Below, in pieces: positions 11,434 to 37,934 of a DNA stretch of 37,934 nt (its first letter is position 1; the number at the start of each line of letters is the position of its first letter). Origin of the DNA: a bacterium UBP10_UBA1149 (GTDB taxonomy: Bacteria > Desulfobacterota > Binatia > UBA1149); contig DBZX01000015.1 of NCBI GenBank assembly GCA_002311335.1, forward strand, positions 106,430 through 144,363, given 5' to 3'. The translations under genes were made by a program, and so were the position numbers. The notes below the pieces were generated by a model. That model had not been told where the DNA came from. It saw only the letters and a program-made list of their open reading frames with translations, and ran no database searches.

Positions 11434-11561
11434 GCTGCGTGCCCCATCCCGGGGCTACAATACCGGGGGCTGGTGGCTACCGCCAGAGATAAACGATGGT
11501 TGGGCGATGGTGTCGGCGGCCCTGTTGAAAACTCTGCCAAGGGCAGTAGGCTGGTAAACAG

Positions 11562-12485
11562 ATGATGGTCAAACCAGCTCCCCTGGCAGCAGGCGACAGG
11601 GTCGCCCTGGTGGCCCCGTCCGGGGTATGCGACCCCGGCCGCCTGGCAACCGGCGTGCAACTGTTGCGCGATTGGGGACTGGACCCGGTCACGCTGGCCG
11701 TCGATGGGCGGTTTCGCTACATGGCCGACTCCGACCAGCGGCGCGCCGCTGCCCTTACCGAGGCTTTTTCCAACAACGACTACCGGGCCGTGATGGCGGT
11801 TCGCGGAGGTTTCGGCTGCGCTCGCCTGATCGACCGTTTTGACACGGCGCTGGTGGCTGCCAATCCCATAATACTCACCGGTTTCAGCGACCTTTCTTTG
11901 CTGCTCAACCGCGTGGTGCAGGAAGCCGGCGTGGCCTGCTACCATGCGCCCATGGTCGCGGCCGATCTCCCGCGCCTCGGCGAAGCTGCCAGGGAGTCGT
12001 TCCGGCGTTTCCTCTTCGGCGAAGACGGCTGGTTTGCAGGCCAGGCCGAGCAGTGCTGGCGCGGTGGTGTGGCGGAGGGCCTGCTGGTCGGGGGCTGCCT
12101 TTCGGTGCTGGTCACTACCCTGGGAACCCCCGCTGAAATCGACACCGAATCACGCATACTGTTTCTCGAAGACGTCGCTGAGAAGCCCTACCGCATCGAT
12201 CGCATGATGACCCACCTGCGACAGGCCGGAAAACTCGATCGCGTAGCGGGCCTGGTGCTTGGACCCATGACCGATTGCGATGACGGCCAGGGTCCCGGCG
12301 TTCTCAGGGACATAGTTCTCGAGGCGTTGGCTGGCATTGACTGCCCGGTGGCCTGGGGGCTGCAGTCGGGGCACGGCTGCGACAACGGTGTGCTACCTTT
12401 CGGATGCAGGGTGAGACTCGACGCTGACGCGCCAGGCCTCGAGCTGCTCGAGTCGGTGCTGTCCCCGGCCACGAGGTCGGGGTAG
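11562..12485 (+). CDS. ldcA: LD-carboxypeptidase (peptidase S66, muramoyltetrapeptide carboxypeptidase)
   Basis: 307 aa. GDRVALVAPSG, GGFGCARL and the nucleophile elbow GFSDLS are typical of S66. Confidence 0.8.
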   Translation: MMVKPAPLAAGDRVALVAPSGVCDPGRLATGVQLLRDWGLDPVTLAVDGRFRYMADSDQRRAAALTEAFSNNDYRAVMAVRGGFGCARLIDRFDTALVAANPIILTGFSDLSLLLNRVVQEAGVACYHAPMVAADLPRLGEAARESFRRFLFGEDGWFAGQAEQCWRGGVAEGLLVGGCLSVLVTTLGTPAEIDTESRILFLEDVAEKPYRIDRMMTHLRQAGKLDRVAGLVLGPMTDCDDGQGPGVLRDIVLEALAGIDCPVAWGLQSGHGCDNGVLPFGCRVRLDADAPGLELLESVLSPATRSG

Positions 12486-12508
12486 GCCGACTCCACGAGT
12501 TAAGCAAG

Positions 12509-13702
12509 GTGAGTAAGGGTGGGCAGGTATGGGCCGGGTTGGAGTCGCTGGTCGAAGAGGCCATGGGCCGGGGCGTGAGTCCGGGCGTGGTGCTGCTTGT
12601 AGGCCGGGGCGAAGACGTAATTTACCAGCGCGGCTGGGGTCGCCTGGGACTGGGCGAGAACCCCGACGTAGACAGCGCGGTTATACCCGCTACGCGTTTT
12701 GACGTGGCCTCACTGAGCAAGCCCCTGGCGACGTTTGCCTCGCTTGTGTTGCTAATGGCAGAGGGGCACTTGCTGCTGGGCCAGCCGGTGGCCGATTTTT
12801 TTCCAGGCTTTGGCGGCGTGGGACCCTTTGCCGGTGCGGGAGCAGGTGGAACTTCGGTCACCGTCAGCCAGCTGCTCACCCACAGTTCGGGCTTGCCCGA
12901 CTGGGTGCCGTATTTCAAGGCCCCGGAATTTGCCGCGGCCGGGCCGCAGCCGTTCACCTTCGACAAGCGTCGTCGCAGCCGCCTCGTGGCCGAGGTCGCC
13001 CGCCAGCCGTTGGTGTACGAACCCGGCAGCGAGTCGCGCTACAGCGATCTCGGTTTCATACTGCTGGGTGACATCGTAGAGCAGATCTCCGGCGAGGGTC
13101 TCGACGAGTTTATCACCTCGAGGCTGCTGCAACCGCTTGGCACGGGGGCTGGTTTCCGTCGTCCGGGCTCAGGCGTCCGGGGGCAGCCCGACGCCGAGTT
13201 AGCTCCCTGTGGAATCTGCGGGTGGCGGCAGCGGCTGGTGCAGGGGCAGGTGCAGGACGAGAACGCCTGGCTTATGGGCGGGGTGGCCGGGCACGCGGGA
13301 TTGTTTGCCTCGGCCCGGGACATCCACCTGTTGGCCGCTGAGCACGAGGCCGCGCTGGCTGGCAAGTCAACGCTGCTCGACGGCCGGCTGCTGCGCCACC
13401 TGCTCGACGCCGAGCCGTCGGTGCCTGGCTCGACCTGGCTGCCCGGCTGGGACACGCCCACGCCAGGCGCCTCGACGGCCGGCAGCCTGGTCGGCGCGCG
13501 CGCGCTCGGGCACCTGGGCTACACCGGTAGCTCGCTTTGGATAGACCGCGACCGGGGGGTGCACGTGGTGCTGCTCAGCAACCGCGTTCATCCCCACACT
13601 GGCAACCGCGGCATCGCTGCGCTCAGGCCGGCGGTGCACGACGCAGTGTTCGAGTGCGTTGATTCGCTGTCTCGACAGCGGTCACGCAAGCGTGCAGACT
13701 GA
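12509..13702 (+). CDS. Serine hydrolase of the beta-lactamase/penicillin-binding fold (class C-like)
   Basis: 397 aa. SxxK motif (ASLSKP), YSD (YxN-like) and HAG (KTG-like) in the expected order. GTG start. Confidence 0.8.
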   Translation: MSKGGQVWAGLESLVEEAMGRGVSPGVVLLVGRGEDVIYQRGWGRLGLGENPDVDSAVIPATRFDVASLSKPLATFASLVLLMAEGHLLLGQPVADFFPGFGGVGPFAGAGAGGTSVTVSQLLTHSSGLPDWVPYFKAPEFAAAGPQPFTFDKRRRSRLVAEVARQPLVYEPGSESRYSDLGFILLGDIVEQISGEGLDEFITSRLLQPLGTGAGFRRPGSGVRGQPDAELAPCGICGWRQRLVQGQVQDENAWLMGGVAGHAGLFASARDIHLLAAEHEAALAGKSTLLDGRLLRHLLDAEPSVPGSTWLPGWDTPTPGASTAGSLVGARALGHLGYTGSSLWIDRDRGVHVVLLSNRVHPHTGNRGIAALRPAVHDAVFECVDSLSRQRSRKRAD

Positions 13703-13709
13703 ACGGGTC

Positions 13710-15128
13710 GTGGCAGGCAAATCACAACACGTACATCTCGTGGCTGTATGCGGCGTCGGCATGGCGCCGCTGGCCGTCATGCTCAAGCAGTCGGGCTACA
13801 CAGTGAGCGGCTCCGACAAGGCTTCCTATCCGCCCATGGGGCAGGTGCTGGCCGACGCCGGCATAGAGATACTCGAAGGTTTTTCGCCCGACCATCTTGA
13901 CCCCCTGCCCGACGTGGTAGTTATCGGCAACGCGGTGTCGGCCAGCAACCCCGAGGCCGCGGAGGTCGAGCGCCTGGGGCTGCCGCGCCTGTCATTCCCC
14001 GAGGCGGTGGCCCGCTACTTCCTGCGCGATCGGCGTAGCCTGGTGGTGGCCGGTACGCACGGCAAGACAACCACCACCGGCATGCTGGCGCGCGTGCTCG
14101 AGGTCGCCGGCGAGGACCCCGGCTACCTGGTGGGCGGCCTGGTGCGCGACCTCAAAGGCTTGGCGCGGGCGGGCCGGGCGGGCGCCTGGTTTGCCATCGA
14201 GGGCGACGAGTACGACTCGGCCTACTTCGACAAGGGCCCCAAGTTTGTTCACTACCAGCCGGCGGCGAGCATAATCACCAGCGTTGAGTTCGACCACGCT
14301 GACATCTACCGCGACGTGGAGCACGTCAAGAGTTCCTTTGCGCGCCTGGTCGAGTTGCTGCCCGAAGGCGCCCCGCTGGTGGTTTGCGGCGACTATCCCC
14401 ACCTGCTCGACCTGCTTGGTTCGTCGCCGCGGCCGGGCTTGATCAGTTACGGTTGCGGCGACAACAACCAGTGGAGGCCCACAGAACTCGAGCACGGTTC
14501 GGCCGGCAGTTCGTTCCGACCGTCGCTTGAAGGTGAGCTGGGCCCGCGCTTGCAGCTGCGGCTTCACGGCAGCATCAACGTGCTCAACGCGCTGGCGGTG
14601 TTTGTGCTTTCGAGACAGCTCGGTATATCCGACGCCGCCGTGGCCGAAGCCCTGGCGGGGTACCGGGGTGCCGCCAGGAGGCAGGAGCTGGTGGGCAGTG
14701 CTGCGGGCGTGGACGTGATCGATGATTTTGCCCATCACCCCACCGCGGTTGCCGGCAGCCTGGCTGCCATGGCCGACGCGTACAACGGGCGCAGGGTGTG
14801 GGCGGTGTTCGAACCGCGCTCCAACACCAGCCGCAGGTCGGTCTTCCAGGCTCGCTATACCGAGGCCCTGGCCCTGGCCGACCGAGTCGTCCTGAGCGAG
14901 GTGTTCCACAAGGAGAACGATACCCTGGCCGAGGGCGAAGCGCTCGACACCGAGGCCGTGGTTGAGGAGCTGAACAGCACGGGCACCCCGGCCTGGCAGG
15001 CCGACGGTCCCGACGTCATACTCGACCGCCTGCCGGGCGAGCTCAAAGCGGGCGACGTGGTGCTGTGCATGTCCAACGGCGCTTTTGGAGATCTTCCGCG
15101 CCGCCTGCTGGCCGCTCTCGGCGGCTGA
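13710..15128 (+). CDS. mpl: UDP-N-acetylmuramate:L-alanyl-gamma-D-glutamyl-meso-diaminopimelate ligase (murein peptide ligase)
   Basis: HVHLVAVCGVGMAPLA..L...GY.VSGSD...YPPM aligns with the Mpl N-terminus, and GTHGKTTTT is the Mur-ligase P-loop. I prefer GTG 13710, just after the upstream stop. The track start TTG 13659 overlaps the previous gene by 44 nt. Confidence 0.85.
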   Translation: MAGKSQHVHLVAVCGVGMAPLAVMLKQSGYTVSGSDKASYPPMGQVLADAGIEILEGFSPDHLDPLPDVVVIGNAVSASNPEAAEVERLGLPRLSFPEAVARYFLRDRRSLVVAGTHGKTTTTGMLARVLEVAGEDPGYLVGGLVRDLKGLARAGRAGAWFAIEGDEYDSAYFDKGPKFVHYQPAASIITSVEFDHADIYRDVEHVKSSFARLVELLPEGAPLVVCGDYPHLLDLLGSSPRPGLISYGCGDNNQWRPTELEHGSAGSSFRPSLEGELGPRLQLRLHGSINVLNALAVFVLSRQLGISDAAVAEALAGYRGAARRQELVGSAAGVDVIDDFAHHPTAVAGSLAAMADAYNGRRVWAVFEPRSNTSRRSVFQARYTEALALADRVVLSEVFHKENDTLAEGEALDTEAVVEELNSTGTPAWQADGPDVILDRLPGELKAGDVVLCMSNGAFGDLPRRLLAALGG

Positions 15129-15134
15129 ACTGTT

Positions 15135-17288
15135 CTATTTTCCGGCAGCGCTGTCGCCGCTGGAGCCATACACGCGCTCGAAATTGCGAGCGTTGCGGAG
15201 AACCTTTTTCACGTAGCCACGGGTCTCGCGGTAGGAAATTCTTTCGATGAACTCATCCTCGTCGAGGCCGTCCAGCCGGTCGAACCAGCGTTGCGCCGCG
15301 TTCTCGCCCGCGTTGTAACCGGCCAGCATGAGGACGGGGTTGTCGTTGAAGCGCCGCGCGAGCGAGGCGAGGTAAGCCGTGCCCAGCGCGATGTTGACGT
15401 CGGGCACGAAGAGGTCGTCGCGCGAAGGCTCTGCCCGGTCCGTCGCCCTGGCCACCCGCCTGGCGGTGGGCAAGAGCAGTTGCATCAACCCGTAGGCAGC
15501 GGCCGGCGAGGTGGCGTGCGCGTCAAAAACGCTTTCCTGTTTCATCAGCGCGTAGACCAGCGAGGGGCGGATCTTCCAGCGACCCGCTTCGCGCCCCACG
15601 ATGTCGGCATGGGCCCTGGGGTAGAGAAACGGGTACAGCTGGGCATCGTTGAGCAGGCCCTTGCGATAGAGCTGCAGTGCCACGCGCAGGCTGCTGTTCC
15701 AGGCACCCGACGCGGCCAGCTGCGGCAACAGGGCCAGCAGTTGCTCGCTGCTGCGGCCGCTCGTCAGCCGAGCGGTTTCGGTGGCCCCGTGGTGGCCCAG
15801 GCCGGCGATTCTCAGTGCTTCCGCCCGCGCCAGTGTGCGCCGTGCAGAGGCGTCAAGCGTGACCGTTGAGCGTGGAAGATTTTCGACCGTGGCCGCGGGC
15901 GCCCTGAGCGGGAGCCGTTGCTCGACCAGCCAGGAATAAAAGCCGTCGGGAAACTCGGCCAGCAGCTGCCGGTAGACGGCCAGGGCCTCGTTGCTGGTCT
16001 TGCCAGCCGCGCGTTCAATGGAGCGGGCTTTCCAGTACAGGGCGCCTTCGCGTCCACTCGGGCTGGAGGGCCTGCTGACTCCTGACCCACGGGCCGGTGG
16101 CTTGGTGGCCTGCACGATGAGACCGAACTTCCACGCCGCGCCAGGGTAGTTGCCCGCCCGGTACGAGGCCCAGCCGGCCCGCCACGCGGACTCACTGCGG
16201 ATGTGCTGGTCAGGGCTTTTTTCGGCCGAGCGATAGTGGGCGGCCGCGCTGTTGTAGCGGCGGGCCGACTCATGGATGCGGCCCGAGGCGTAGTGGGCTT
16301 TGTGCTCTTCGTCCAGCCCCGACCCCAGCGACAGAAATTTTTCGAAGCGTTGCAGGGCCAGCGTCGACTGGTTCGCGTTCCAGCTGTACACCGCCGACTC
16401 GTACAGCAGTCGCGCCGACCGGCCCGGGTCGCTTTCGCCCGCAGATTTCTGCGACAGCCACCAGGCAGCCGCCTGCTTATCTTTCAGGGCCGCGGTCGAG
16501 CGGGCCCGGCCGAGAATCGAAGTCGTGCGCGATGGGTGGCGCGGAAAGTCCTTGAGCAGCTTGTCCAGCATCGCTACGCGTTGGCTGTGCCTGCCCTCGG
16601 CACCCAGCAGCCGGGTCTCGGCCACCAGCTGCTCGGCGCTGGTCGGCAACAGTTTCGGGTTGTCGCTTTGCAGATCGGATGCCAGCTCGGCGGCCGGCCT
16701 GCCCGATTGACCGCCGGGGTCTCTTGCCCTGGCGCGGTTGGCCAGCTCGAGCGAACGCCGGGGGTCCGAGGCCTGCAGGCGGCGCGCAGCCGCCACCGCG
16801 ATGGCCGCAAAATCGGCGTTGAGGGTGGTTCCGCCGCGGTACTTTTCGGCCAGCTCGAGTACGCGGGCATCTGCTGTTTCCGGCAGGCCAACCAGCAGCG
16901 CTGCGCTGGCGGGCGCCACCGGCGAGTCGGGTACCAGCGCCAGCAGCTTCTCGAGTTCGGCGGCAGCCGCAGTTTTTTCATCGGCGGCCGCTTCGGCGCT
17001 CAAGCCGGTAGCAGCGAGCCTGCTGCGGGCCAGGAAGTAGAGCACGTAGTCCTGCAGCAGGGCGAAGTCGTTTTTCAGGGTGAGCAGGGTGCGCCGGGCC
17101 AGGGCCGGGTCGTTGTCCCCGCTGGCTGACAGGGCCGTCACCGCAGATCCCAGCCGGGCGGCGTGGGTGGCGTCGGATCTGCCGAGCAGGGATTTTTCGG
17201 GTGCCGCCAGGGCGCTGCAGGCGGTAACGGCCGGGGCCAGCAGTGTGGCTGTAAGCAGGAAGGAAAGCGCTCTAACTCTGGTCAGCAC
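15135..17288 (-). CDS. slt: Soluble lytic murein transglycosylase (Slt70-like)
   Basis: 717 aa. Signal peptide, a long alpha-superhelical N-terminal region, and a C-terminal SLT domain with MKQESVF (catalytic Glu-Ser), AYGLMQL and AGYNAG. Confidence 0.85.
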   Translation of the reverse strand: MLTRVRALSFLLTATLLAPAVTACSALAAPEKSLLGRSDATHAARLGSAVTALSASGDNDPALARRTLLTLKNDFALLQDYVLYFLARSRLAATGLSAEAAADEKTAAAAELEKLLALVPDSPVAPASAALLVGLPETADARVLELAEKYRGGTTLNADFAAIAVAAARRLQASDPRRSLELANRARARDPGGQSGRPAAELASDLQSDNPKLLPTSAEQLVAETRLLGAEGRHSQRVAMLDKLLKDFPRHPSRTTSILGRARSTAALKDKQAAAWWLSQKSAGESDPGRSARLLYESAVYSWNANQSTLALQRFEKFLSLGSGLDEEHKAHYASGRIHESARRYNSAAAHYRSAEKSPDQHIRSESAWRAGWASYRAGNYPGAAWKFGLIVQATKPPARGSGVSRPSSPSGREGALYWKARSIERAAGKTSNEALAVYRQLLAEFPDGFYSWLVEQRLPLRAPAATVENLPRSTVTLDASARRTLARAEALRIAGLGHHGATETARLTSGRSSEQLLALLPQLAASGAWNSSLRVALQLYRKGLLNDAQLYPFLYPRAHADIVGREAGRWKIRPSLVYALMKQESVFDAHATSPAAAYGLMQLLLPTARRVARATDRAEPSRDDLFVPDVNIALGTAYLASLARRFNDNPVLMLAGYNAGENAAQRWFDRLDGLDEDEFIERISYRETRGYVKKVLRNARNFERVYGSSGDSAAGK

Positions 17289-17335
17289 GTGGTCTCCTTT
17301 TTGACTTTACCTGAGCGGGTTCAAGAATACAGGCC

Positions 17336-24315: not shown

Positions 24316-24468
24316 GCGTTCGATTTTACCGCGGGCCCGTGGCGCAGGGCGCTGCCCGCCCCACGAGTTGCCGTCAGCGGCAGTCAATAGCCGTTGCCGG
24401 CCGGCTTTAACAACCCCGCCCGGTCGGGCTCTTGCGGGCGTAGCCGGGTGGGGTAAGAATGATGGGCG

Positions 24469-26637
24469 ATGCGTTTTTCTACGCTTGTTGCCGTAGCCCG
24501 GCACACGTTCGCTCTCATGGCCGTGGCCGCCTTCCTGGCGGTGGTGACGCTGTTGTCGGCGTCCTTGGTCCTGGCGACACAACCTCCGCTACCGCTGTAT
24601 ATGGCTGCAGACCTGCCGGAAGCCGAGATCGAAGAACCCGGCGCTTCGCAAAAGGATCTCCTGGAAGACGGCCCCCGGGCGGCCCCCTGGCAGCCGGTTT
24701 CGGCTGCGGGCGAACGCCGCCTGGCCATAGCCGGCAGCGACCGCGTGCTGCTTTCCATGGTCCCGGTACAGGTAGCCGCCGGTGGTCGCGTGTTCGTGTA
24801 CGGCGAGCTACCGGCCTCCCTGCTGGGCCGAAAGCTAGAGGCCGAGGTGCTGCTCTACGAAGAAGGCGCTTGGAAGCGAAGGCATGTTTTCAGTCCGGGC
24901 GAGGGCAAGCTCGGCCGCCTGAGCAGCACGCTTGTTGCTCCCGAACGTGAACCCGGACCGGTGGTGGCGGCCTTGTACGCGCAGTTGGCCACCAACGGTG
25001 GAGCGCGCACCATCAGCAGCCTGCCGGTAAGCATTCCGCGCTCGTCGGAACTGCGTTTTGGATACAGCGTAGATTCCGAGGACTGGAAGGGTCTTGCGCC
25101 GGTGTCCATCACGGTTCGCGCGCGGGTGTTCGAAGACGGGCGGCCCGGGCTGCAGACGCTGAAGCTTTTCAGCGCCACGCTCGACCCTGGCCAACTGGAG
25201 CCGGCTTGGTTTGATATCGACGTGGATGTTTCGTCGCTTGGCGGCAGGCAGGTCAGCATAGAGTTCGAGTCGCGCTCTGTGGGTGGCGGCTCGAAAGTGG
25301 TACCGGCGGTGGTGTGGAGCTCGCCCATGGTGGTCGCCCGGAAGAGCCGAGACAGGCGTCCCTCCCTGGTCATCGTCGGGCTCGATTCATTACGCTATAC
25401 GAGCATGGGCTGCTGCGGTTCACGGCGCGACACTACGCCTTTCATGGACGAGTGGTTCGGTGGCAACGGCGCGATCTTTGACAACGCGTCGACCCCGTCG
25501 GTCACTCCGCAATCGGCGTGGATGAGCTTGTTTACCGGGCTGTACCCGTCGGTGCACGGCGTGCTCGACAACAACGAAGAGCTGTCACCGCAGGTGGACA
25601 CCCTGGCCGCGTTGCTGTCACGGGGGGGCTACCGCACCGTGGCTTTCACCGAGGGTGGTGCCGCGGGAACCTCGAGCCCCCTGGTCGCCGGTTTCGACAG
25701 CTTCGTGGCCGACGAGGGCTACGACCTGGCCGACACCGAGGGCCGCCTGGCCGGCACTCTCGAGGCCGCGGGCAACTGGGTCAACGCGCACTCGGACGAA
25801 CCCTTCTTCATGTTCGTGCACAGCTATCGGCTGCATGCACCGCACCTTCCGCCGCGGGGCTACGGCAGCATGTTCAAGGACGACAAGTTGTTTGCCGACA
25901 GCCGCGTCGACGAGGGCGCCCTGGTGCGCTACGAACGCGAACTGCGCTACGTGGACGACCAGCTCGGCATCTTCGTGGACTCGGTGGTGAGAAAACTCGG
26001 CGGCAACGTAGTGGTGGTGGTCACCTCCAATCACGGTCAGGAGTTTCTCGAGCACGGTGCGAGGGGCGCGGGCAGCCATCTCTACGAAGAATCGTTGAAG
26101 ATTCCGCTCATGATGAGTGGCCCGGGCATAAAAAAGTCTACCCGCTACGACGCTTCGTTGAGCCTGGTGGACCTCGCGCCCACGCTGGTTGAGCTGTTGG
26201 GCATCGACGCGCCACCGGGCATACAGGGAGTGTCGCTAGCCAGTTCGCTGGGCAGCGGCCTGCCGTTTTCGCTGTCGCCTCGGTTCAGCGAGGCCAGGGG
26301 GCGGCTGCGCGTTGACGAGAGCGGCAAAGGCCTGCGCTGGAAATCTCCCGCTTACGCGGTCAAGCAGGGACGCTACAAGCTCATCATGCAGCCGACCTCG
26401 GGTGGTGGGCAGGATCTGGAGGCCTACGACCTCGCGATTGATCCGGCTGAGCGCAACAACCTGCTGGCCGGCGGCGGGCAGGCACCTGCCTGGGCGGCCA
26501 CACTGACCGAGGCCCTCATGGGCTATCCCGTTGCCTGTCAGCAGGTGGCCAGGGGTGCCGGCCCGAGCGTTCAGCGCGGCTACGCCGGTCTGCTCAAGTC
26601 GCGCGCGCTTGGCGAAACGACCGCCCGCAAGCGCTGA
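24469..26637 (+). CDS. Membrane-anchored sulfatase-like hydrolase/transferase (alkaline-phosphatase superfamily) with a ~290-aa N-terminal domain of unknown function
   Basis: N-terminal TM (ALMAVAAFLAVVTLLSASLVLA). The C-terminal half carries LVIVGLDSLRYTSMGCCG, TPQSAWMSLFTGLYPSVHGV, VVVVTSNHGQEF. The canonical C/S-x-P-x-R formylglycine motif is absent. Confidence 0.8.
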   Translation: MRFSTLVAVARHTFALMAVAAFLAVVTLLSASLVLATQPPLPLYMAADLPEAEIEEPGASQKDLLEDGPRAAPWQPVSAAGERRLAIAGSDRVLLSMVPVQVAAGGRVFVYGELPASLLGRKLEAEVLLYEEGAWKRRHVFSPGEGKLGRLSSTLVAPEREPGPVVAALYAQLATNGGARTISSLPVSIPRSSELRFGYSVDSEDWKGLAPVSITVRARVFEDGRPGLQTLKLFSATLDPGQLEPAWFDIDVDVSSLGGRQVSIEFESRSVGGGSKVVPAVVWSSPMVVARKSRDRRPSLVIVGLDSLRYTSMGCCGSRRDTTPFMDEWFGGNGAIFDNASTPSVTPQSAWMSLFTGLYPSVHGVLDNNEELSPQVDTLAALLSRGGYRTVAFTEGGAAGTSSPLVAGFDSFVADEGYDLADTEGRLAGTLEAAGNWVNAHSDEPFFMFVHSYRLHAPHLPPRGYGSMFKDDKLFADSRVDEGALVRYERELRYVDDQLGIFVDSVVRKLGGNVVVVVTSNHGQEFLEHGARGAGSHLYEESLKIPLMMSGPGIKKSTRYDASLSLVDLAPTLVELLGIDAPPGIQGVSLASSLGSGLPFSLSPRFSEARGRLRVDESGKGLRWKSPAYAVKQGRYKLIMQPTSGGGQDLEAYDLAIDPAERNNLLAGGGQAPAWAATLTEALMGYPVACQQVARGAGPSVQRGYAGLLKSRALGETTARKR

Positions 26638-29427: not shown

Positions 29428-29775
29428 ATGTTTTCGGGTTGTTCAACATCCGGCGACGCGGGGGCTTGTGTGCCCGCTCGCGCTGCGGTAATTAGCCGGG
29501 TGGATTCCGCACCTGCATCGGGTGTACCGGCCAAGCCGGGGCGCAAGATCAAGGTAAATCCCTTGCGTTGTAGGTCGGAATCCTGCGATGGCCTCCTGGC
29601 CTTCGAGGAAACGGATGAAGGATTTCTTATGGGGAACATGATCCTTCTGGCGGATGAGGTTGAGGGGAAGAGGTTTTTTCCGTGCCCGAAGTGCAGGGGT
29701 CGCAACCTGGTCGACGAAGTCGAACACGGTGGCAGGACCCGCGTCCGCGTTTTTGGTTTTGAGCCCGGCGAGTAG
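29428..29775 (+). CDS. Hypothetical small zinc-ribbon protein (start uncertain)
   Basis: CRSESC...(32 aa)...CPKCRG gives two CxxC-type knuckles. Third-position G/C is about 70% in this frame by my count. ATG 29428 is the first start outside tldD. No family recognised. Confidence 0.4.
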   Translation: MFSGCSTSGDAGACVPARAAVISRVDSAPASGVPAKPGRKIKVNPLRCRSESCDGLLAFEETDEGFLMGNMILLADEVEGKRFFPCPKCRGRNLVDEVEHGGRTRVRVFGFEPGE

Positions 29776-29843
29776 CGAGAGAGCGGCCTCTGCCGCTTGC
29801 TGTTCTTCGGGCGACAGTCACTGACAGCCACTGGTTCTTTTTC

Positions 29844-30593
29844 GTGCACCGGGTAGTGCCTTGCGCGCTTTTGCGCGCTCGGTTGGTGTACCGAGTGATA
29901 AGTTTGAACAAGTACAAGGTGTTGCGTGCGCAGAGCGCGGCGCTGCCGGTGGCCGCGCTGGCCTGCGCGCTGCTCGTCATTCCCTCGTTTTCGGGTGCCG
30001 CTTCGCTTCCGGAGGGACCACGCCAGGGCGTCGCAGCGGAGGCGAGCCGACGGCCGAGCAGCCAGCAGCTCAACAGGCTGGACCGGCTCGAGCCCCTGAT
30101 TCGCTACTTCACCTCCTTGTCTTACGGTCCCGACGACGCGCGCGTGAACGGCGACTACATTCGCGCCTTGATACTCACCGAGTCGGGCGCCAACATACGC
30201 GCCCGCTCGCGCAAGGGTGCAAGGGGCCTGACGCAGATCATGCCGTCCACGGCGAGGTGGGCCGTGGCTCACCTCGCCCGCGAAAACTACGACTACCTGT
30301 ACGTAGACGAGGGCGTGTTCAAGGATTTCGTGGCCGACGATCTTTACCATCCGGGCTTGAACGTATTGTTGGCCTGCTACCTCAACGCCACTTACAACCA
30401 GCGTTTTGATGGACAGATTGAGTTGATGGCCGCGGCCTGGAATGCCGGGCCCGGGGCGGTGCGGCGCTATGGAAACCAGCCGCCCCCTTACCCCGAAACA
30501 CTTACCCTGATCAGGCGAGTGCTGGGATACATAGATTTCTTCACGGCTACCGTCGGCGTTAATCCCGCATCACCCGGGCTGGCTCTCAAGTAG
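29844..30593 (+). CDS. Lytic transglycosylase (SLT domain) with signal peptide
   Basis: ALILTESGAN (catalytic Glu-Ser), ARGLTQIMPSTA, AAWNAGPG. There is a hydrophobic leader ALPVAALACALLVIPSFSGAAS. The start is uncertain (GTG 29844, TTG 29904 or GTG 29919). Confidence 0.8.
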   Translation: MHRVVPCALLRARLVYRVISLNKYKVLRAQSAALPVAALACALLVIPSFSGAASLPEGPRQGVAAEASRRPSSQQLNRLDRLEPLIRYFTSLSYGPDDARVNGDYIRALILTESGANIRARSRKGARGLTQIMPSTARWAVAHLARENYDYLYVDEGVFKDFVADDLYHPGLNVLLACYLNATYNQRFDGQIELMAAAWNAGPGAVRRYGNQPPPYPETLTLIRRVLGYIDFFTATVGVNPASPGLALK

Positions 30594-33261: not shown

Positions 33262-33507
33262 ATGGGTAAAGACGGTATAGAGGTAGACGGGACGGTCAAA
33301 GAGAACCTCCCGAACGCATTTTTCAAGGTGGAGCTGGAGAACGGCCACACCGTGCTCGCCCATATTTCGGGTAAGATGCGTAAGTACTATATCCGTATCC
33401 TTCCAGGCGATGCAGTCAAGGTGGAGCTGTCGCCCTATGATCTGACCAGGGGTCGGATAATCTGGCGAGAGAAAACGCCCCCCCGCACGCCTCGCAAGCG
33501 GCGCTAG
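33262..33507 (+). CDS. infA: Translation initiation factor IF-1 (with a short basic C-terminal extension)
   Basis: [65 protein letters not shown] is canonical IF-1. Confidence 0.96.
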
Positions 33508-33523
33508 CCGGGGTGGCCGCCGC

Positions 33524-33599
33524 TGGGGAGTGGCCAAATTGGTAAGGCACCTGATTCTGGTTCAGGCAACTGAAGGTTCGAGTCCTTCCTCCCCAGCCA
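33524..33599 (+). tRNA. tRNA-Gln (anticodon CUG), CCA encoded
   Basis: Hand-folded cloverleaf: acceptor TGGGGAG/CTCCCCA, anticodon stem CCTGA/TCAGG with loop TTCTGGT, T arm GAAGG-TTCGAGT-CCTTC, discriminator G plus CCA. The overall sequence is very close to E. coli tRNA-Gln as I remember it. Confidence 0.93.
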
Positions 33600-33660
33600 T
33601 TTTCGTCCACTGACTTTCCTGCTTTTTCGAGCTCCTGCCCGCCCGGCCGTAGTGTCTTCC

Positions 33661-33680
33661 CGCCGGGATTTTCCCCGGCG
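33661..33680 (+). terminator. Hairpin downstream of infA/tRNA-Gln (possible terminator or processing signal)
   Basis: Perfect 7-bp stem CGCCGGG/CCCGGCG with a 6-nt loop. The following sequence TTCACAAATGTTCGTTT is only moderately T-rich. Confidence 0.3.
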
Positions 33681-33756
33681 TTCACAAATGTTCGTTTACC
33701 GGGTCGAGTGAAGCATCGCGGTCAACGCTGCCGCTGTTGTTGCGGGTGCAGGCTTC

Positions 33757-33773
33757 TGGCACGTCCATTGCTC
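33757..33773 (+). promoter_or_regulatory. Sigma-54 (RpoN) promoter, copy 1
   Basis: TGGCACGTCCATTGCTC matches TGGCAC-N5-TTGC exactly. It lies 55 nt upstream of ATG 33826, and an identical 17-mer precedes the next gene. Confidence 0.75.
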
Positions 33774-33825
33774 ATGCAGCAGCGGGTAGTTGGGCTCGAG
33801 CCCAGGCAGACCCGGGGGAAGTCTT

Positions 33826-34728
33826 ATGGGCGACCAGTTTTCAGACGGGGATTCACAACTTTCAACAGGTTACGAGCCCGCGGTGCAATCGCCGGTGGCG
33901 ATACTGCGCTGGTCCGGGTTCGTCCTGGGGCTGGTGGCGGTTGTGGCGGCTGTGGCCGCGGTCATGCCATCCAACGGCGAGCTGCAGCTCCGGGCAGGAG
34001 AGTCGGCGCAGACCGTAGGCATGCTTGAAAGCCTGGGCGGTACGGTCGCCGTAGTGCCGGTCAACGCGCTTTGCGGTAACGCCCAGTTGGATGAGGGCGA
34101 GGCCTGCGACGACGGTAACCTTTCCAACTCGGACAAGTGCCTGGCTAATTGCAAGCTGCAGAGCTGCGGAGACGGATTTATCCACGTTGGCTTTGAGCAG
34201 TGTGACGACGGAAATTCTGACGACGCCGACAGTTGCCTGGGCAGCTGTCGCAGTGCTCGCTGTGGCGACGGCTTTGTCCAGGCCGATGTTGAGAGCTGCG
34301 ACGACGGCAACGCTGACAACACAGACGCCTGTCTGGATAGCTGCGAGACTGCTTCCTGCGGCGATGGTTTTGTGCAGGCCGATGTAGAGAGCTGCGACGA
34401 CGGCAACGCTGACAACACAGACGCCTGCCTCTCGAGCTGCGAGGCCGCGCCGGCCGAGTTGCCCGAGCTGTATACGCAGGCCGAGGACCTGGACCTTGCC
34501 GATTTCAGTCTGCAACTGGGTGCGTTCACTTCGCTGGCCAATGCCGAGGAGTTCATGGAAGCAGCTGCCCAGGTAGTACCTGGCGTGCGTGTGAGCCGGA
34601 CCGAAAGGAACGGCAAGTCCTTGTACCGGGTCGTCCTGGGACGCTACCCGACCGCCGGGCAGGCGGAGGTCATACAGCACACGCTGGCCATGGCAGGCAT
34701 GGGCTCGCTTTTGAAGGTTCGGCGCTAG
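33826..34728 (+). CDS. Bitopic membrane protein: TM helix, four Myxococcus-type cysteine-rich repeats, C-terminal SPOR peptidoglycan-binding domain
   Basis: ATG 33826 is preceded by GGGGGAAG. TM WSGFVLGLVAVVAAVAAVM. Repeats CG[ND]G..6-8..C-DDGN....D.C...C at 34072-34452. The C-terminus FSLQLGAFTSLANAEEF....G.SLYRVVLGRYPTAGQAE..... fits the SPOR consensus (34501-34722). Confidence 0.85.
   Translation: MGDQFSDGDSQLSTGYEPAVQSPVAILRWSGFVLGLVAVVAAVAAVMPSNGELQLRAGESAQTVGMLESLGGTVAVVPVNALCGNAQLDEGEACDDGNLSNSDKCLANCKLQSCGDGFIHVGFEQCDDGNSDDADSCLGSCRSARCGDGFVQADVESCDDGNADNTDACLDSCETASCGDGFVQADVESCDDGNADNTDACLSSCEAAPAELPELYTQAEDLDLADFSLQLGAFTSLANAEEFMEAAAQVVPGVRVSRTERNGKSLYRVVLGRYPTAGQAEVIQHTLAMAGMGSLLKVRR
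34261..34452 (+). repeat. 96-nt in-frame tandem duplication (two cysteine-rich repeat units)
   Basis: 34261-34356 versus 34357-34452 shows 15 differences in 96 nt by hand count. The first 24 codons encode identical peptides (CGDGFVQADVESCDDGNADNTDAC), with 6 differences that are all synonymous. Confidence 0.9.
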
Positions 34729-34740
34729 CCTGCCGCCCAG

Positions 34741-34772
34741 CCCCCTGCTGTTCATAAATGTCCAGCAAGGGG
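34741..34772 (+). other. Intergenic hairpin 13 nt after the stop of the SPOR gene
   Basis: CCCCCTGCTG / CAGCAAGGGG gives a 10-bp stem with one mismatch and a 12-nt AT-rich loop, TTCATAAATGTC. There is no T-tract, so it is not a classical terminator. Confidence 0.5.
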
Positions 34773-34893
34773 AGTCGTTGAACCGCTGTCGATAGCTCTT
34801 CAGCCTGCCACCAGCCTGTAAAACCGCCCCGATAACAAGTCTTTACGGCACATAGCCCAGCTTCCGGCGCTCCCTCTTTTCCAGCTCATACGG

Positions 34894-34910
34894 TGGCACG
34901 TCCATTGCTC
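34894..34910 (+). promoter_or_regulatory. Sigma-54 (RpoN) promoter, copy 2
   Basis: The identical 17-mer TGGCACGTCCATTGCTC, 57 nt upstream of ATG 34965. Confidence 0.75.
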
Positions 34911-34964
34911 TTGCAACTATGGGTATTTGGCCCTGACATGGGCCAATCCAGGGAGACCAGGGGA

Positions 34965-37934
34965 ATGGATGACAGAATTTTTGATATGAACTCAAAGCCT
35001 TTTTGCAACGATCGGCCAGACGAGAGCTGCTTCGATAGCGCTAACACTCGTGAGGCGGTGGCTTCGTTGCTGCACGGAATACGGTCGCGCAAGGGCTTTA
35101 TCACTCTCGTGGGTGACCAGGGAACCGGCAAGACGTCGCTGCTGCAGCGCGTCGCCGACGAGCTCGAGGGCGAGGCCGAGGTCGTATGCGTGTTCGACGC
35201 GGGGCTCGGCTTCGACGAACTGCTCGAGTACCTCTGCGTCCAGCTGGGCCTGGACACCGACGACAGCCGCCGCATGAGCCTGCTCGACAAGCTGAACGCC
35301 TACCTGCTCGATTCGCTCGTAGAGGGCGGCAACGTCGTAGTCATAATCGACGATGCTCACCTGATCGATGAGAGGCTGCTCGAAGAACTTCGCCTGCTCA
35401 CCAACCTCGAAACTTCCACAGAGAAAATACTGCAGATCGTCCTGTGCGGAGAGCGCTCTCTCGAAACCAAGCTCAAGCGCCACTCGCTTCGGCAGGTAAG
35501 GCAGCGCGTAGGCATGCGAGCAGTTCTCGAACCTCTGGCCAAGGACGACGTCGTTGATTACATCGACTCTCGCCTGGCCCCCTGGGAAGCGAGAGCCGAA
35601 GACATTTTCAGTGGTGGTGCTATTCGCCGTCTTTCCGGCGGCCGCAAGCCCACTCCCGCCAGCGTGAACAGCCTGGCCGCGAGAGCCATGGAGATCGCCC
35701 TGGAGAAAGGGCTGCCCCTGGTGCCAGCTTCTTGCATTCGAAAAGCCGAGGCCGAACAGCGACGCACTCTCAGGGGCGAGGGCTCAGGATCTACCGCTGC
35801 CGCTCTGCGGTGGACGGGATACGGTGGCGCGGCTTTCGCAGCTGCTGCGGTGGCCGTGCTGCTGACCAACAACTGGCAGGGCAGTGTTACGAACGTAGTG
35901 GCCCCTGGAGCTGAGCCCGTGCCGAGCTACTCGAACTCGGTGCAGCTGGCACTCGACGAACTTCAAAGCCAGAGCGAACTGGCCGACAGCGCGCTTGCCG
36001 AGGTTTCCAAGGCGAAAACCACCAGTGAAACGGCCGCTGCCAAGACCGTGGTCAGCGAGGAGGGGTTGGCTGATAGCTTGCAAGCCACGGTGCTTGTTGC
36101 AGCCGTGGCGCCTGTGCAAGCCGACGTCGTGGCGGCCGCCTCGTTGGTAGAAAACCATACTGCGGATAGCGCTTCGGTAGAAAGCGATCCGACAGGCGAT
36201 CACTCGGTGGACAACATCCTGGCGGATGATGCCTCGGTGGTAGTCGTTCTGGCCGGCGACCTGTGTGGGAACGGCGAATTGGACGAGGGCGAAGAATGTG
36301 ACGACGGCAACCCGTCGAACTCCGATGCCTGCCTGGTGACCTGTGAGCTCCGCAGTTGCGGCGACGGTTTCGTGCACTCTGGTTTCGAAGAGTGCGACGA
36401 CGCGAACTCGAACAACAGCGACGAATGTCTCAACAACTGTCGCAAGGCTCGTTGTGGAGACGGGCAGGTCCTGGCTTCCCTTGAGGAGTGCGATGATGGC
36501 AAGGCTAACAGCAACTCGACGGCGGACTCCTGCAGGGTAGACTGCCGTTTACCCTTTTGCGGTGACGGAGTGGTGGATGGCGACGAAGCCTGCGATGACG
36601 GCAACGCCAACAATAACGACACCTGTCTCGACAGTTGCGTGACCGCGGTTTGCGGCGATGGTTTTATACAGGTCGACGTAGAGCAGTGTGACGCGGGTGC
36701 AGACAACGACGACGGCACGGCCGACGTTTGTCGTACCGATTGCAGTCTGCCTTCCTGCGGCGACGGCGTGGCCGATTCCGGCGAGATCTGCGACGACGGA
36801 AACAGCTCTAACCAGGACGGTTGCATTGAAGATTGCACTCTCCCGGTTTGCGGCGACGGCTACTTGTTCGTGGGCATGGAAGAATGCGACGAGGGCGACC
36901 GGAACAGTACCAGGCTTCCCAATGTCTGCAGGACGGATTGCACGAGGCCTTCCTGCGGCGATGGCGTGGTCGACACCGGCGAATCCTGTGACGACGGAAA
37001 CAGTGACAACAGCGACGCCTGCCTTGACGACTGCCGCGTGGCTTCATGCGGAGACAGCGTGGTGCAGGCGGGCGTAGAAGAATGCGACTCCGGGGGCTTC
37101 AACAGCGACTTGCTCCCCGGCAGTTGTCGGAGCGATTGCGTTCTGCCCACCTGTGGTGACGGCGTGGTCGATTCGGGCGAGGCTTGCGACGACGGCAACG
37201 CCGACGACAGTGACTCCTGCCTGGCCAACTGCGTCTCGGCCACTTGCGGTGATGGGGTTGTATCCGTTGGCGTGGAGTCCTGTGACGGCGGAGACGCCAA
37301 CAGTGATATTGTTGCCGGTGCTTGCCGTAACGACTGTTCGTTGCCCTCCTGTGGTGACGGAGTTGTCGACGCGGGCGAGAGCTGCGACGACGGCAATATT
37401 TCGAACGATGACAGCTGCACGGCAAAATGTGAGCATGCGTTCTGCGGCGACGGCTTCGTACAGGTTGGTGTAGAGACCTGCGACGCGGGCATCGGGAACG
37501 GCAACCGGATCGGCGATCTTTGTCGTACGGACTGCCGCGTAGCTTCCTGCGGTGATGGAACTGTCGATGCCGGCGAGAGCTGCGACGACGGCAATATTTC
37601 AAACGATGATAGCTGCACAGCGAAATGTGAGCATGCGTTCTGCGGCGACGGCTTTGTGCAGGTGGGAGTCGAGGCTTGCGACGCGGGCCCGGCCAATAGT
37701 GATGTAACGGCTGATAGCTGCCGCGGCGATTGCACGGTGGCCAGCTGCGGTGACGGGATGGTTGACGCGGGCGAGGCCTGCGACGATGGCAACGCCGACA
37801 ACAGCGATGCCTGCCTGGCCAGCTGCGAGGCGGCGGCCTGCGGTGACGGTTTCGTTCAGCTTGACGTAGAGGCTTGCGACGCGGGCCTGGCCAACAGCGA
37901 TGTTGCGGCAGATAGCTGCCGCGGCGATTGCACG
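34965..37934 (+). CDS. Partial CDS (3' end outside the window): ExeA/GspA-like AAA+ ATPase, TM segment, linker, then at least 17 Myxococcus-type cysteine-rich repeats
   Basis: Hand translation of + frame 3 gives 990 codons without a stop from ATG 34965 to the last base, with the upstream in-frame stop TAA at 34833. GGGAGA lies 8 nt before the ATG; an in-frame ATG at 34938 is the alternative start. Walker A GDQGTGKT (35112-35135), Walker B VVVIIDDAH, and LRLLTNLETSTEKILQIVLCGERSLE are typical of ExeA/MshM ATPases. Hydrophobic segment at 35820-35867. Repeats from 36264. It is not in the ORF track because it has no stop. Confidence 0.88.
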   Translation, partial: MDDRIFDMNSKPFCNDRPDESCFDSANTREAVASLLHGIRSRKGFITLVGDQGTGKTSLLQRVADELEGEAEVVCVFDAGLGFDELLEYLCVQLGLDTDDSRRMSLLDKLNAYLLDSLVEGGNVVVIIDDAHLIDERLLEELRLLTNLETSTEKILQIVLCGERSLETKLKRHSLRQVRQRVGMRAVLEPLAKDDVVDYIDSRLAPWEARAEDIFSGGAIRRLSGGRKPTPASVNSLAARAMEIALEKGLPLVPASCIRKAEAEQRRTLRGEGSGSTAAALRWTGYGGAAFAAAAVAVLLTNNWQGSVTNVVAPGAEPVPSYSNSVQLALDELQSQSELADSALAEVSKAKTTSETAAAKTVVSEEGLADSLQATVLVAAVAPVQADVVAAASLVENHTADSASVESDPTGDHSVDNILADDASVVVVLAGDLCGNGELDEGEECDDGNPSNSDACLVTCELRSCGDGFVHSGFEECDDANSNNSDECLNNCRKARCGDGQVLASLEECDDGKANSNSTADSCRVDCRLPFCGDGVVDGDEACDDGNANNNDTCLDSCVTAVCGDGFIQVDVEQCDAGADNDDGTADVCRTDCSLPSCGDGVADSGEICDDGNSSNQDGCIEDCTLPVCGDGYLFVGMEECDEGDRNSTRLPNVCRTDCTRPSCGDGVVDTGESCDDGNSDNSDACLDDCRVASCGDSVVQAGVEECDSGGFNSDLLPGSCRSDCVLPTCGDGVVDSGEACDDGNADDSDSCLANCVSATCGDGVVSVGVESCDGGDANSDIVAGACRNDCSLPSCGDGVVDAGESCDDGNISNDDSCTAKCEHAFCGDGFVQVGVETCDAGIGNGNRIGDLCRTDCRVASCGDGTVDAGESCDDGNISNDDSCTAKCEHAFCGDGFVQVGVEACDAGPANSDVTADSCRGDCTVASCGDGMVDAGEACDDGNADNSDACLASCEAAACGDGFVQLDVEACDAGLANSDVAADSCRGDCT
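36558..37934 (+). repeat. In-frame 198-nt super-repeat (31-aa A unit + 35-aa B unit), 7 copies, the last cut by the window edge
   Basis: The Cys codon of each CGDG opening an A unit falls at 36558, 36756, 36954, 37152, 37350, 37548 and 37746, exactly 198 nt apart. The copies at 37350 and 37548 are the most similar. Confidence 0.9.

Follow-up and report, generated by a model that had tools for sequence, protein, structure and literature searches.

The stretch of DNA studied here, 37,934 nucleotides (nt) of contig DBZX01000015.1 from the bacterium UBP10_UBA1149 and called the window as a whole, ends with two adjacent genes on the forward strand. Gene 1 (33826-34728, +) encodes a protein with a transmembrane segment (TM), DUF4215 repeats and a SPOR domain, and gene 2 (34965 to the window edge at 37934, +) encodes an AAA+ ATPase followed by a TM and an array of the same repeats. 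UBP10 corresponds to the Binatota (PMC8262859), and the gene pair belongs to an uncultured marine lineage of this group. A first-pass annotation, made from the letters alone, had compared the pair with a split form of the secretion protein ExeA, with the ATPase and TM on gene 2 and the SPOR domain on the adjoining gene 1. Pfam and NCBIfam scans and AlphaFold models confirmed this distribution of the domains. The features of the two genes are as follows.

33680-33693, +: upstream motif GTTCACAAATGTTC, 77 nt 5' of the gene 1 sigma-54 site, a candidate enhancer-binding-protein site
33757-33772, +: predicted sigma-54 type promoter (-24 GG / -12 GC) of gene 1, TGGCACGTCCATTGCT
33826-34728, +: gene 1, 300 amino acids (aa), analysed by Pfam and NCBIfam scans and an AlphaFold model
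Gene 1, N-terminal to residue 26: short, acidic, predicted cytoplasmic tail
33901-33966, +: gene 1 TM (hydrophobic segment), residues 26-47
34072-34452, +: four Cys-rich, acidic DUF4215 repeats of gene 1, 31-32 aa each, residues 83-209
34501-34707, +: C-terminal SPOR domain of gene 1, residues ~226-294
34750-34763, +: upstream motif GTTCATAAATGTCC, 144 nt 5' of the gene 2 sigma-54 site, a candidate enhancer-binding-protein site
34894-34909, +: predicted sigma-54 type promoter of gene 2, TGGCACGTCCATTGCT, 71 nt 5' of the ATG
34965-37934, +: 5' part of gene 2, 990 codons without a stop, cut by the window edge
35082-35474, +: AAA_22 domain of gene 2, residues 40-170
35112-35138, +: Walker A motif of gene 2, GDQGTGKTS
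35337-35360, +: Walker B motif of gene 2, VVIIDDAH
35805-35867, +: predicted TM of gene 2 (hydrophobic segment), residues 281-301, preceded by an Arg
Gene 2, between TM and repeats: acidic linker of ~130 aa
From 36261 (residue 433), +: DUF4215 repeats of gene 2, 17 in the window

The repeats of gene 1 scored above the cut-off both with DUF4215 (E 7e-17, 61.9 bits, Pfam) and with TIGR02232 (E 4e-23, 80.9 bits, NCBIfam), and its C-terminal part was recognised by the Pfam SPOR model PF05036 (E 1.6e-10, 41.6 bits, cut-off 21). In the AlphaFold model the repeats reached a pLDDT of ~87-92 and the SPOR part only 50-60. When this SPOR part, with its low pLDDT, was compared by Foldseek, it matched the crystal structure of the RlpA SPOR domain (6i05) with a probability of 0.97 and also DamX (2lfv), whereas the modelled repeats had no structural match and DUF4215 is without a fold match in the PDB. 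Sequence searches of the PDB with gene 1 and with the gene 2 ATPase gave no matches. The start codon ATG 33826 is preceded by a GGGGGAAG ribosome-binding site, and gene callers gave close homologues (P0121) the same start residue; the alternative TTG at 33790 would sit nearly at the predicted transcript start. The exact sequence, with either start codon, was absent from the record look-up. A database search with the SPOR domain by itself returned members of the lineage only, and the combination of DUF4215 with SPOR was found in the window lineage only.

In gene 2 the ATPase was identified as AAA_22 (PF13401; E 1.9e-21, 77 bits, cut-off 27), and the repeats in the window gave 167 bits with DUF4215 (E 1e-49) and 183 bits with TIGR02232 (E 5e-55). 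They consist of 12% Cys and 23% Asp plus Glu, with an isoelectric point of ~4. The AlphaFold model of residues 1-280 has an AAA+ fold (pLDDT 86), and its best fold matches were ORC/Cdc6, MuB and TnsC, which belong to the initiator clade of AAA+ proteins. These are ATPases that work as nucleotide-dependent assembly switches. The Walker A motif of gene 2 is intact, whereas an Asp replaces the catalytic Glu of Walker B, so that hhhhDD stands in place of the usual hhhhDE. All four ATPases fused to DUF4215 repeats read DDA[QH] at this site, against DEAQ in 116 other homologues. This suggests that the DUF4215-fused clade binds nucleotide and hydrolyses it poorly, which would favour a binding switch over a motor.

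Eight close relatives of the locus (L001, L009-L015) from one metagenome-assembled genome and from marine metagenomes were compared, with 91-97% identity over the N-terminal part of gene 2. A more divergent relative, L024, has 68% identity in the ATPase and 52% in the SPOR domain. The 3' end of gene 2 and the genes downstream were supplied by L011, the 304-kb contig LWDU01040316.1, in which gene 2 is 92% identical. There the gene covers ~9.3 kb and encodes ~3,114 aa, with 77 repeats or more; an NN gap and frame shifts, of the sort that are typical where repeats are assembled, break it up. Beyond the TM come only DUF4215 repeats and a short non-hydrophobic tail; no LysM, SPOR or PG_binding_1 domain and no sorting signal was found in this part, of which the C-terminal 1,545 aa were domain-scanned. 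Downstream sequence had been expected to reveal whether the pair stands by secretin, pilus or exopolysaccharide (EPS) genes. Instead, gene 2 of L011 is followed by a NUDIX gene and the gene of a cytoplasmic histidine kinase (HisKA). The first-pass statement that secretin, pilin, GspB/ExeB and exosortase genes are missing from the window was upheld by a Pfam scan of its ~30 other genes, among which no Sigma54_activat domain or enhancer-binding protein (EBP) gene was found either. No EPS genes were present in the 34 kb upstream in the window or in the 2 kb downstream in L011. Taken together, the scanned window genes and the downstream genes of L011 indicated no secretion, pilus or polysaccharide-synthesis genes at the locus.

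Gene 1 is recognisable from the alignments as a truncated tandem paralogue of gene 2, since the two have their promoter and leader in common, as well as the segment next to the TM and repeats 1-2. Over the promoter and the 21-nt leader, the two genes are identical at 30 of 37 nt, and the alignment score of 44 compares with a maximum of 23 in shuffled sequences. Both proteins carry the juxtamembrane motif LRW[ST]G[FY], which was matched by 2 of 1000 shuffles, and in both a segment V.VV...LCGN leads into an unusual first repeat that starts with CGN. The best matches are collinear, repeat 1 with repeat 1 (71%) and repeat 2 with repeat 2 (66%). When the hand alignment of these first two repeats was recomputed, the 48 of 68 identical residues counted earlier were obtained exactly. 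Gene 1 repeats 3-4 resemble distal units of gene 2, and in L014 gene 1 holds double units of the gene 2 type, from which it follows that the arrays still exchange sequence by recombination or gene conversion. In its domains, gene 1 therefore corresponds to gene 2 without the ATPase and the long linker, but with a SPOR domain in addition. A likeness of the N-terminal peptides (MGDQFSD and MDDRIFD) was rejected, as 420 of 1000 shuffles reached its score.

The identical sigma-54 site reported before both genes was verified, with TGGCACGTCCATTGCT starting at 33757 and at 34894. The pattern TGGCAC-N5-TTGCW has these two matches in the window, where 0.04 were expected, and no shuffled sequence reached two. 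Both predicted promoters read TGGCAC-N5-TTGCT with canonical spacing and lie upstream of a start codon. The sites are kept in L001 and L009-L015 wherever covered, with changes in the spacer only, and the gene 2 site stands 71 nt from the ATG in each of the eight close relatives and 72 nt from it in L024, where the site reads TGGCACGGCCATTGCT. Similar sites precede the genes of the more distant homologues P0025 (TGGCACGGGGGTTGCT) and P0015 (TGGTACGACCATTGCT). Such retention, down to 46-68% protein identity, suggests that sigma-54 dependence is ancestral for this ATPase branch. The ~21 nt 3' of each site (33773-33793 and 34910-34930) are shared by both genes and kept in L024 (TGCA.C...GG.TA.TTGG). 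This conserved leader exceeds the needs of a promoter; an Rfam scan of 33400-35100 for a known RNA identified tRNA-Gln only.

A further shared motif, GTTCAYAAATGTYC, stands before both sigma-54 sites, so that each gene has the pair of GTTCAYAAATGT and sigma-54 site. The degenerate 14-mer occurs twice in the window, once per gene, and is maintained in the relatives. Since the alignment of the two upstream regions was matched by 15 of 1000 shuffles, the evidence for the gene 1 copy is modest. For gene 2, the core CTGCTGTTCATAAATGT and its spacing of 144 nt are kept in L024 (556-569), where the intergenic region has mostly diverged and four blocks remain: the sigma-54 site TGGCACGGCCATTGCT, the leader, a CTTTAC block and CTGCTGTTCATAAATGT. 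A TTTAC element 5' of both sigma-54 sites resembles the 3' end of the PEP-CTERM 'motif 1'; the element is too short to evaluate, and we make no claim on it. Scanning between gene 1 and gene 2 for sigma-70 promoters and terminators gave nothing convincing.

The order and adjacency of the pair are held in all close relatives that cover both genes (L001, L009-L012, L014 and L015), the contig of L013 ending inside gene 1. On the L024 contig, likewise, the intact end of a DUF4215-SPOR gene 1 is followed by the sigma-54 site of gene 2 and the first part of the ATPase. When the sequences were compared with those of the relatives, dN/dS was 0.2-0.6 for gene 1 and ~0.2 for the ATPase, and below 1 in all comparisons. 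Gene 1 and gene 2 are under purifying selection. The co-occurrence of the pair, named by the first-pass annotation as a check, stood in the close relatives and in L024; it did not extend to the homologue P0015, which lacks a SPOR neighbour, or to an allele called P0242, in which gene 1 is gutted.

To place the ATPase, we compared it with its best matches outside the lineage. These were proteins of 600-770 aa with 47-48% identity, several of them named Candidatus Binatia, that consist of the ATPase, a TM, a Pro/Ala-rich linker, LysM and a C-terminal alpha/beta domain. LysM was found in 12 of the 12 sister proteins tested and a weak SPOR match in 3 of the 12 (best E 1.8e-4). The C-terminal domain aligns in register with the SPOR domain of gene 1 (hhalign E 0.024), at a probability of only 2%. 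All three sister loci inspected (L021, L022/L023 and L025) have a sigma-54 EBP response regulator, the ATPase, a Wza-like Poly_export protein and a Wzc-like chain-length protein, followed by a ParA-like kinase, Wzy_C, glycosyltransferases and the priming transferase Bac_transf. This is the EPS context for which the family TIGR03015 was built and for which sigma-54 control has been documented (PMC1569441). Upstream of the sister EPS blocks lie a sulfatase and an acyl-CoA dehydrogenase gene; the window also has a sulfatase gene (24463-26634), perhaps as a relic of synteny, perhaps by chance.

In a neighbour-joining tree of the ATPase domain, the DUF4215-bearing proteins (the window protein, P0001, P0002 and P0015) form one clade with 99 of 100 bootstraps, sister to the LysM clade, and the window lineage stands on a long branch. 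The simplest reading is that the LysM and SPOR-like domains were replaced by DUF4215 repeats once, together with the loss of the catalytic glutamate. Since the sister ATPases carry LysM and SPOR-like domains in cis and gene 2 does not, the split is a real redistribution of domains. The idea of a split ExeA was sound in its AAA_22 ATPase, in the lost wall binding in cis and in the SPOR domain on the neighbour; the relevant relatives, however, are the ATPases of Wza/Wzc/Wzy-type EPS loci and not the ExeA of type II secretion. As part of our best explanation, for which we see slightly less than an even chance, the pair would descend from such EPS-locus ATPases with LysM and a SPOR-like domain in cis.

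We tentatively favour, with a confidence that stops just short of one half, a sigma-54-controlled envelope module of two genes whose products co-assemble as a wall-tethered scaffold. Gene 2 would be a giant bitopic protein of the inner membrane (~3,100 aa in the relative) with the AAA+ domain in the cytoplasm and ~80 acidic, disulfide-rich repeats in the periplasm. Binding of ATP by the AAA+ domain, which with its DD Walker B motif is probably a slow switch and not a motor, would lead to oligomerisation of the cytoplasmic domains. Subunits of gene 1 could then join through the common segment of TM and first repeats. SPOR domains bind glycan strands left behind by amidases and transglycosylases, and those of gene 1 would tether the assembly to glycan strands. 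The acidic, disulfide-rich array might finally act as a cation-binding periplasmic scaffold. This mechanism is drawn by analogy from switch-type AAA+ proteins and from ExeA, for which ATPase-dependent complex formation and multimerisation on peptidoglycan have been reported (PMC4098917). A physical partnership of the two proteins with an array 'driven or gated by the ATPase', as suggested by the first-pass annotation, is likewise something that we infer, together with the topology and the role of the array; the domain content, the paralogy, the shared promoter, the conservation of the pair and the lost wall-binding domain in cis are seen in the sequences themselves.

A bolder account is possible but rather doubtful: an ExeA-type ATPase would have been unzipped after a tandem duplication, leaving one copy without the ATPase but with the sole SPOR domain and the other without wall binding, with a hydrolysis-poor DD Walker B and a Cys-rich, acidic array grown to ~80 repeats. 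Together they would form an undescribed, sigma-54-inducible, peptidoglycan-tethered hetero-oligomeric scaffold in Binatota. If so, the stoichiometry of tethered and untethered subunits and the length of the array could be tuned by recombination of the repeats.

A number of observations weigh against co-assembly. In the deletion haplotype P0242, found on nine contigs from several sources, gene 1 is left without any repeat or SPOR core; it encodes 95 aa from the ATG after in-frame deletions of 525 nt and 90 nt that were not mediated by repeats, and its copies in L001 (1505-1828) and L012 (1596-1916) are nucleotide-identical. The ATPase gene beside this allele is intact with a dN/dS of ~0.2, so that the tether can be dispensed with, over short times at least. 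No SPOR gene adjoins that of the sister protein P0015 (ATPase-TM-DUF4215), whose neighbours are a glnS-like gene, the gene of an AMP-binding enzyme and, on the other strand, an unknown gene. Among the close relatives, gene 1 has anything from 0 to ~14 repeats, with 4 to ~14 in L009, L010, L011, L014 and L015 though these strains are 91-97% identical elsewhere, and strains that are nearly identical differ in its length (300 to 588 aa). Together with a frameshift in gene 1 of L011, this variation suggests that the constraint on the gene 1 array is weak. The dN/dS of gene 1 also lies above that of the ATPase. With a hhalign probability of only 2%, the gene 1 SPOR domain is no more than a possible descendant of the ancestral C-terminal domain. 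An array of ~80 repeats seems too long for the periplasm if extended, and the DD Walker B, which argues for a binding switch over a motor, weakens the idea that the array is 'driven'.

The P0242 haplotype, which leaves gene 2 intact, and the solitary P0015 also fit the main rival, in which the two genes are co-regulated but independent. Gene 1 would then be a FtsN/DedD/DamX-like SPOR protein that goes alone to septal or remodelled peptidoglycan, in one sigma-54 regulon with gene 2 but in no complex with it, and the repeats would be in common only by common descent and ongoing gene conversion. Indeed, gene 1 is built like FtsN and DedD, with a short cytoplasmic tail before the TM and a linker that leads to the C-terminal SPOR domain; it matches FtsN and RlpA of NCBIfam weakly through this domain, and each gene has a sigma-54 site of its own. 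However, the TM-proximal segment and repeats 1-2 stay similar while the distal repeats vary, as would be expected of a shared interface, the adjacency is retained at 68% ATPase identity, and the DUF4215-plus-SPOR architecture belongs to the window lineage only. We take this rival seriously but consider it on balance unlikely. It is improbable that the module still serves polysaccharide export as its sister clade does, the ATPase acting with a Wza/Wzc-type machine encoded elsewhere in the genome and the acidic array replacing LysM/SPOR as the periplasmic organiser. The place of the sister clade in loci for EPS export, downstream of a sigma-54 EBP, the documented sigma-54 control of PEP-CTERM/EPS genes (PMC1569441) and the best NCBIfam match of gene 2, the PEP-CTERM-associated ATPase TIGR03015 at 150 bits, all point this way; but this score is far under the cut-off of 324.5, the surveyed 34 kb upstream and 2 kb downstream hold no EPS gene, and the long branch and the Walker B change of the window lineage suggest a changed function.

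Very improbable, in our judgement, is that gene 1 is a decaying side product, without a function of its own, which an unstable repeat gene left behind when it was duplicated in tandem and recombined. The polymorphic repeat number, the L011 frameshift, the doubly deleted in-frame haplotype on nine contigs and a dN/dS of up to 0.6 could be taken as signs of decay, yet the ratio is below 1 throughout, the SPOR domain and gene 1's own sigma-54 promoter are conserved, and the DUF4215-SPOR gene end is intact 5' of the L024 ATPase despite 48% divergence of the SPOR domain. That gene 2 is a true ExeA/GspA orthologue, helping a type II secretion secretin to cross the wall, is largely refuted at the level of the locus. 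It does have an AAA_22 ATPase with a single predicted TM, and homologues were named 'general secretion pathway protein A' by the Joint Genome Institute, but at the locus, to which this examination was limited, there is no PG_binding_1 domain and there are no GspB/ExeB, secretin or other Gsp genes, and the nearest relatives stand in EPS loci and not in type II secretion system (T2SS) loci.

The window genes 5' of the pair encode a CDF transporter, infA, tRNA-Gln, an enoyl-CoA hydratase, an SLT-domain protein, TldD/PmbA, a sulfatase and hydantoinases. Nearest to the pair are the following.

33262-33507: infA, directly 5' of the tRNA-Gln gene and gene 1
33524-33599: tRNA-Gln(CTG), directly 5' of gene 1

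At the P0015 locus, the upstream gene resembles a glutaminyl-tRNA synthetase, as judged by eye from its translation, and the parallel to tRNA-Gln at the window locus is probably a coincidence. A cluster for peptidoglycan recycling and remodelling (11550-17306) encodes an LD-carboxypeptidase, a beta-lactamase-family protein, an Mpl-like Mur ligase and, on the minus strand, a 723-aa Slt70-like lytic transglycosylase with TPR. It is followed by Maf, YggS-like and ProC genes and lies 16-22 kb from the gene pair. A second lytic transglycosylase with an SLT domain (29763-30590, +) stands ~3 kb 5' of the pair; this further gene for a wall-active enzyme close to a SPOR gene could be coincidental. Open reading frames on the minus strand over the repeats (e.g. 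36860-37801, 313 aa, Ser/Pro/Gln-rich) were rejected as shadows of the GC-rich periodic sequence, and a reading as a defence system was dismissed since PADLOC gave an 18-bit P-loop match only.

To our knowledge, the widespread ExeA/GspA-like ATPases are understood only in type II secretion. The comparison brings out a whole branch of this family that sits in sigma-54-controlled polysaccharide export loci with LysM and SPOR-like wall anchors, and indicates that the wall anchor can move to a truncated paralogue and that a very common domain, DUF4215, can be linked directly with an AAA+ switch in the cytoplasm. Should gene 1 and gene 2 co-assemble, they would be a natural experiment that parts the nucleotide switch from the wall tether and would give a handle on the role of DUF4215 arrays.

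Like ExeA/GspA of Aeromonas and Vibrio, gene 2 has an N-terminal cytoplasmic ATPase of the AAA_22 type, a single predicted TM and a large, predicted periplasmic part. ExeA/GspA function needs peptidoglycan binding and multimerisation with a second bitopic protein (PMC4098917). ExeA binds the wall by its own PG_binding_1 domain (PF01471) and has GspB/ExeB as its partner, whereas gene 2 is without a wall-binding domain, the SPOR domain is found on the neighbouring gene and this neighbour, a DUF4215-SPOR protein, is gene 2's own paralogue. Gene 2 also differs in the absence of T2SS genes nearby, in a predicted periplasmic part made of a repeat array of ~2,700 aa and in the Walker B motif with DD in place of DE. 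Closest in sequence (47-48% over the ATPase) are the Binatia EPS-locus ATPases (P0003-P0028), which together with the XrtA/PEP-CTERM ATPase of TIGR03015 resemble gene 2 in the ATPase-TM layout and the sigma-54 promoter. These Binatia proteins have a sigma-54 EBP encoded directly upstream, measure 600-770 aa, carry a Pro/Ala-rich linker with LysM and SPOR-like domains in cis, read DEAQ and lie inside Wza/Wzc/Wzy loci; gene 2 instead has DUF4215 repeats, DDAH and housekeeping neighbours. It stays under the curated TIGR03015 cut-off (150 against 324.5 bits) and lies outside an EPS/exosortase locus.

Gene 1 resembles the bitopic SPOR proteins FtsN, DedD and DamX in the layout of tail, TM, linker and C-terminal SPOR, and in the SPOR fold it matches RlpA and DamX. 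It has no similarity to the essential domain of FtsN (24 bits with the NCBIfam model, cut-off 108), and it differs from other bitopic SPOR proteins in its linker of four or more Cys-rich DUF4215 repeats, in being a paralogue of an ATPase gene and in its sigma-54 promoter. The repeats themselves are those of the DUF4215/TIGR02232 'Myxococcus cysteine-rich repeat' proteins, with 31-35 aa, four Cys and a CDDGN core. Such proteins are abundant among the secreted proteins of Myxococcota and mostly measure 350-525 aa and carry either a signal peptide or the signal of a lipoprotein; only in the window lineage, P0002 and P0015 were the repeats seen joined to an AAA+ ATPase at the N-terminus. The function of DUF4215 repeats is unknown (bioRxiv 10.1101/2023.03.06.531300). 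No description of ATPase-DUF4215 or ATPase-LysM-SPOR proteins came up in the literature searches. Anchoring to the wall by way of a partner protein has a precedent in GspB/OutB of Dickeya dadantii, reported as a separate bitopic scaffold that anchors an envelope machine to peptidoglycan (PMC9239104), although its domains are unrelated and it acts on a secretin. In conclusion, the gene pair is an unusual rearrangement, though not a revolutionary one, of an envelope protein of known type.

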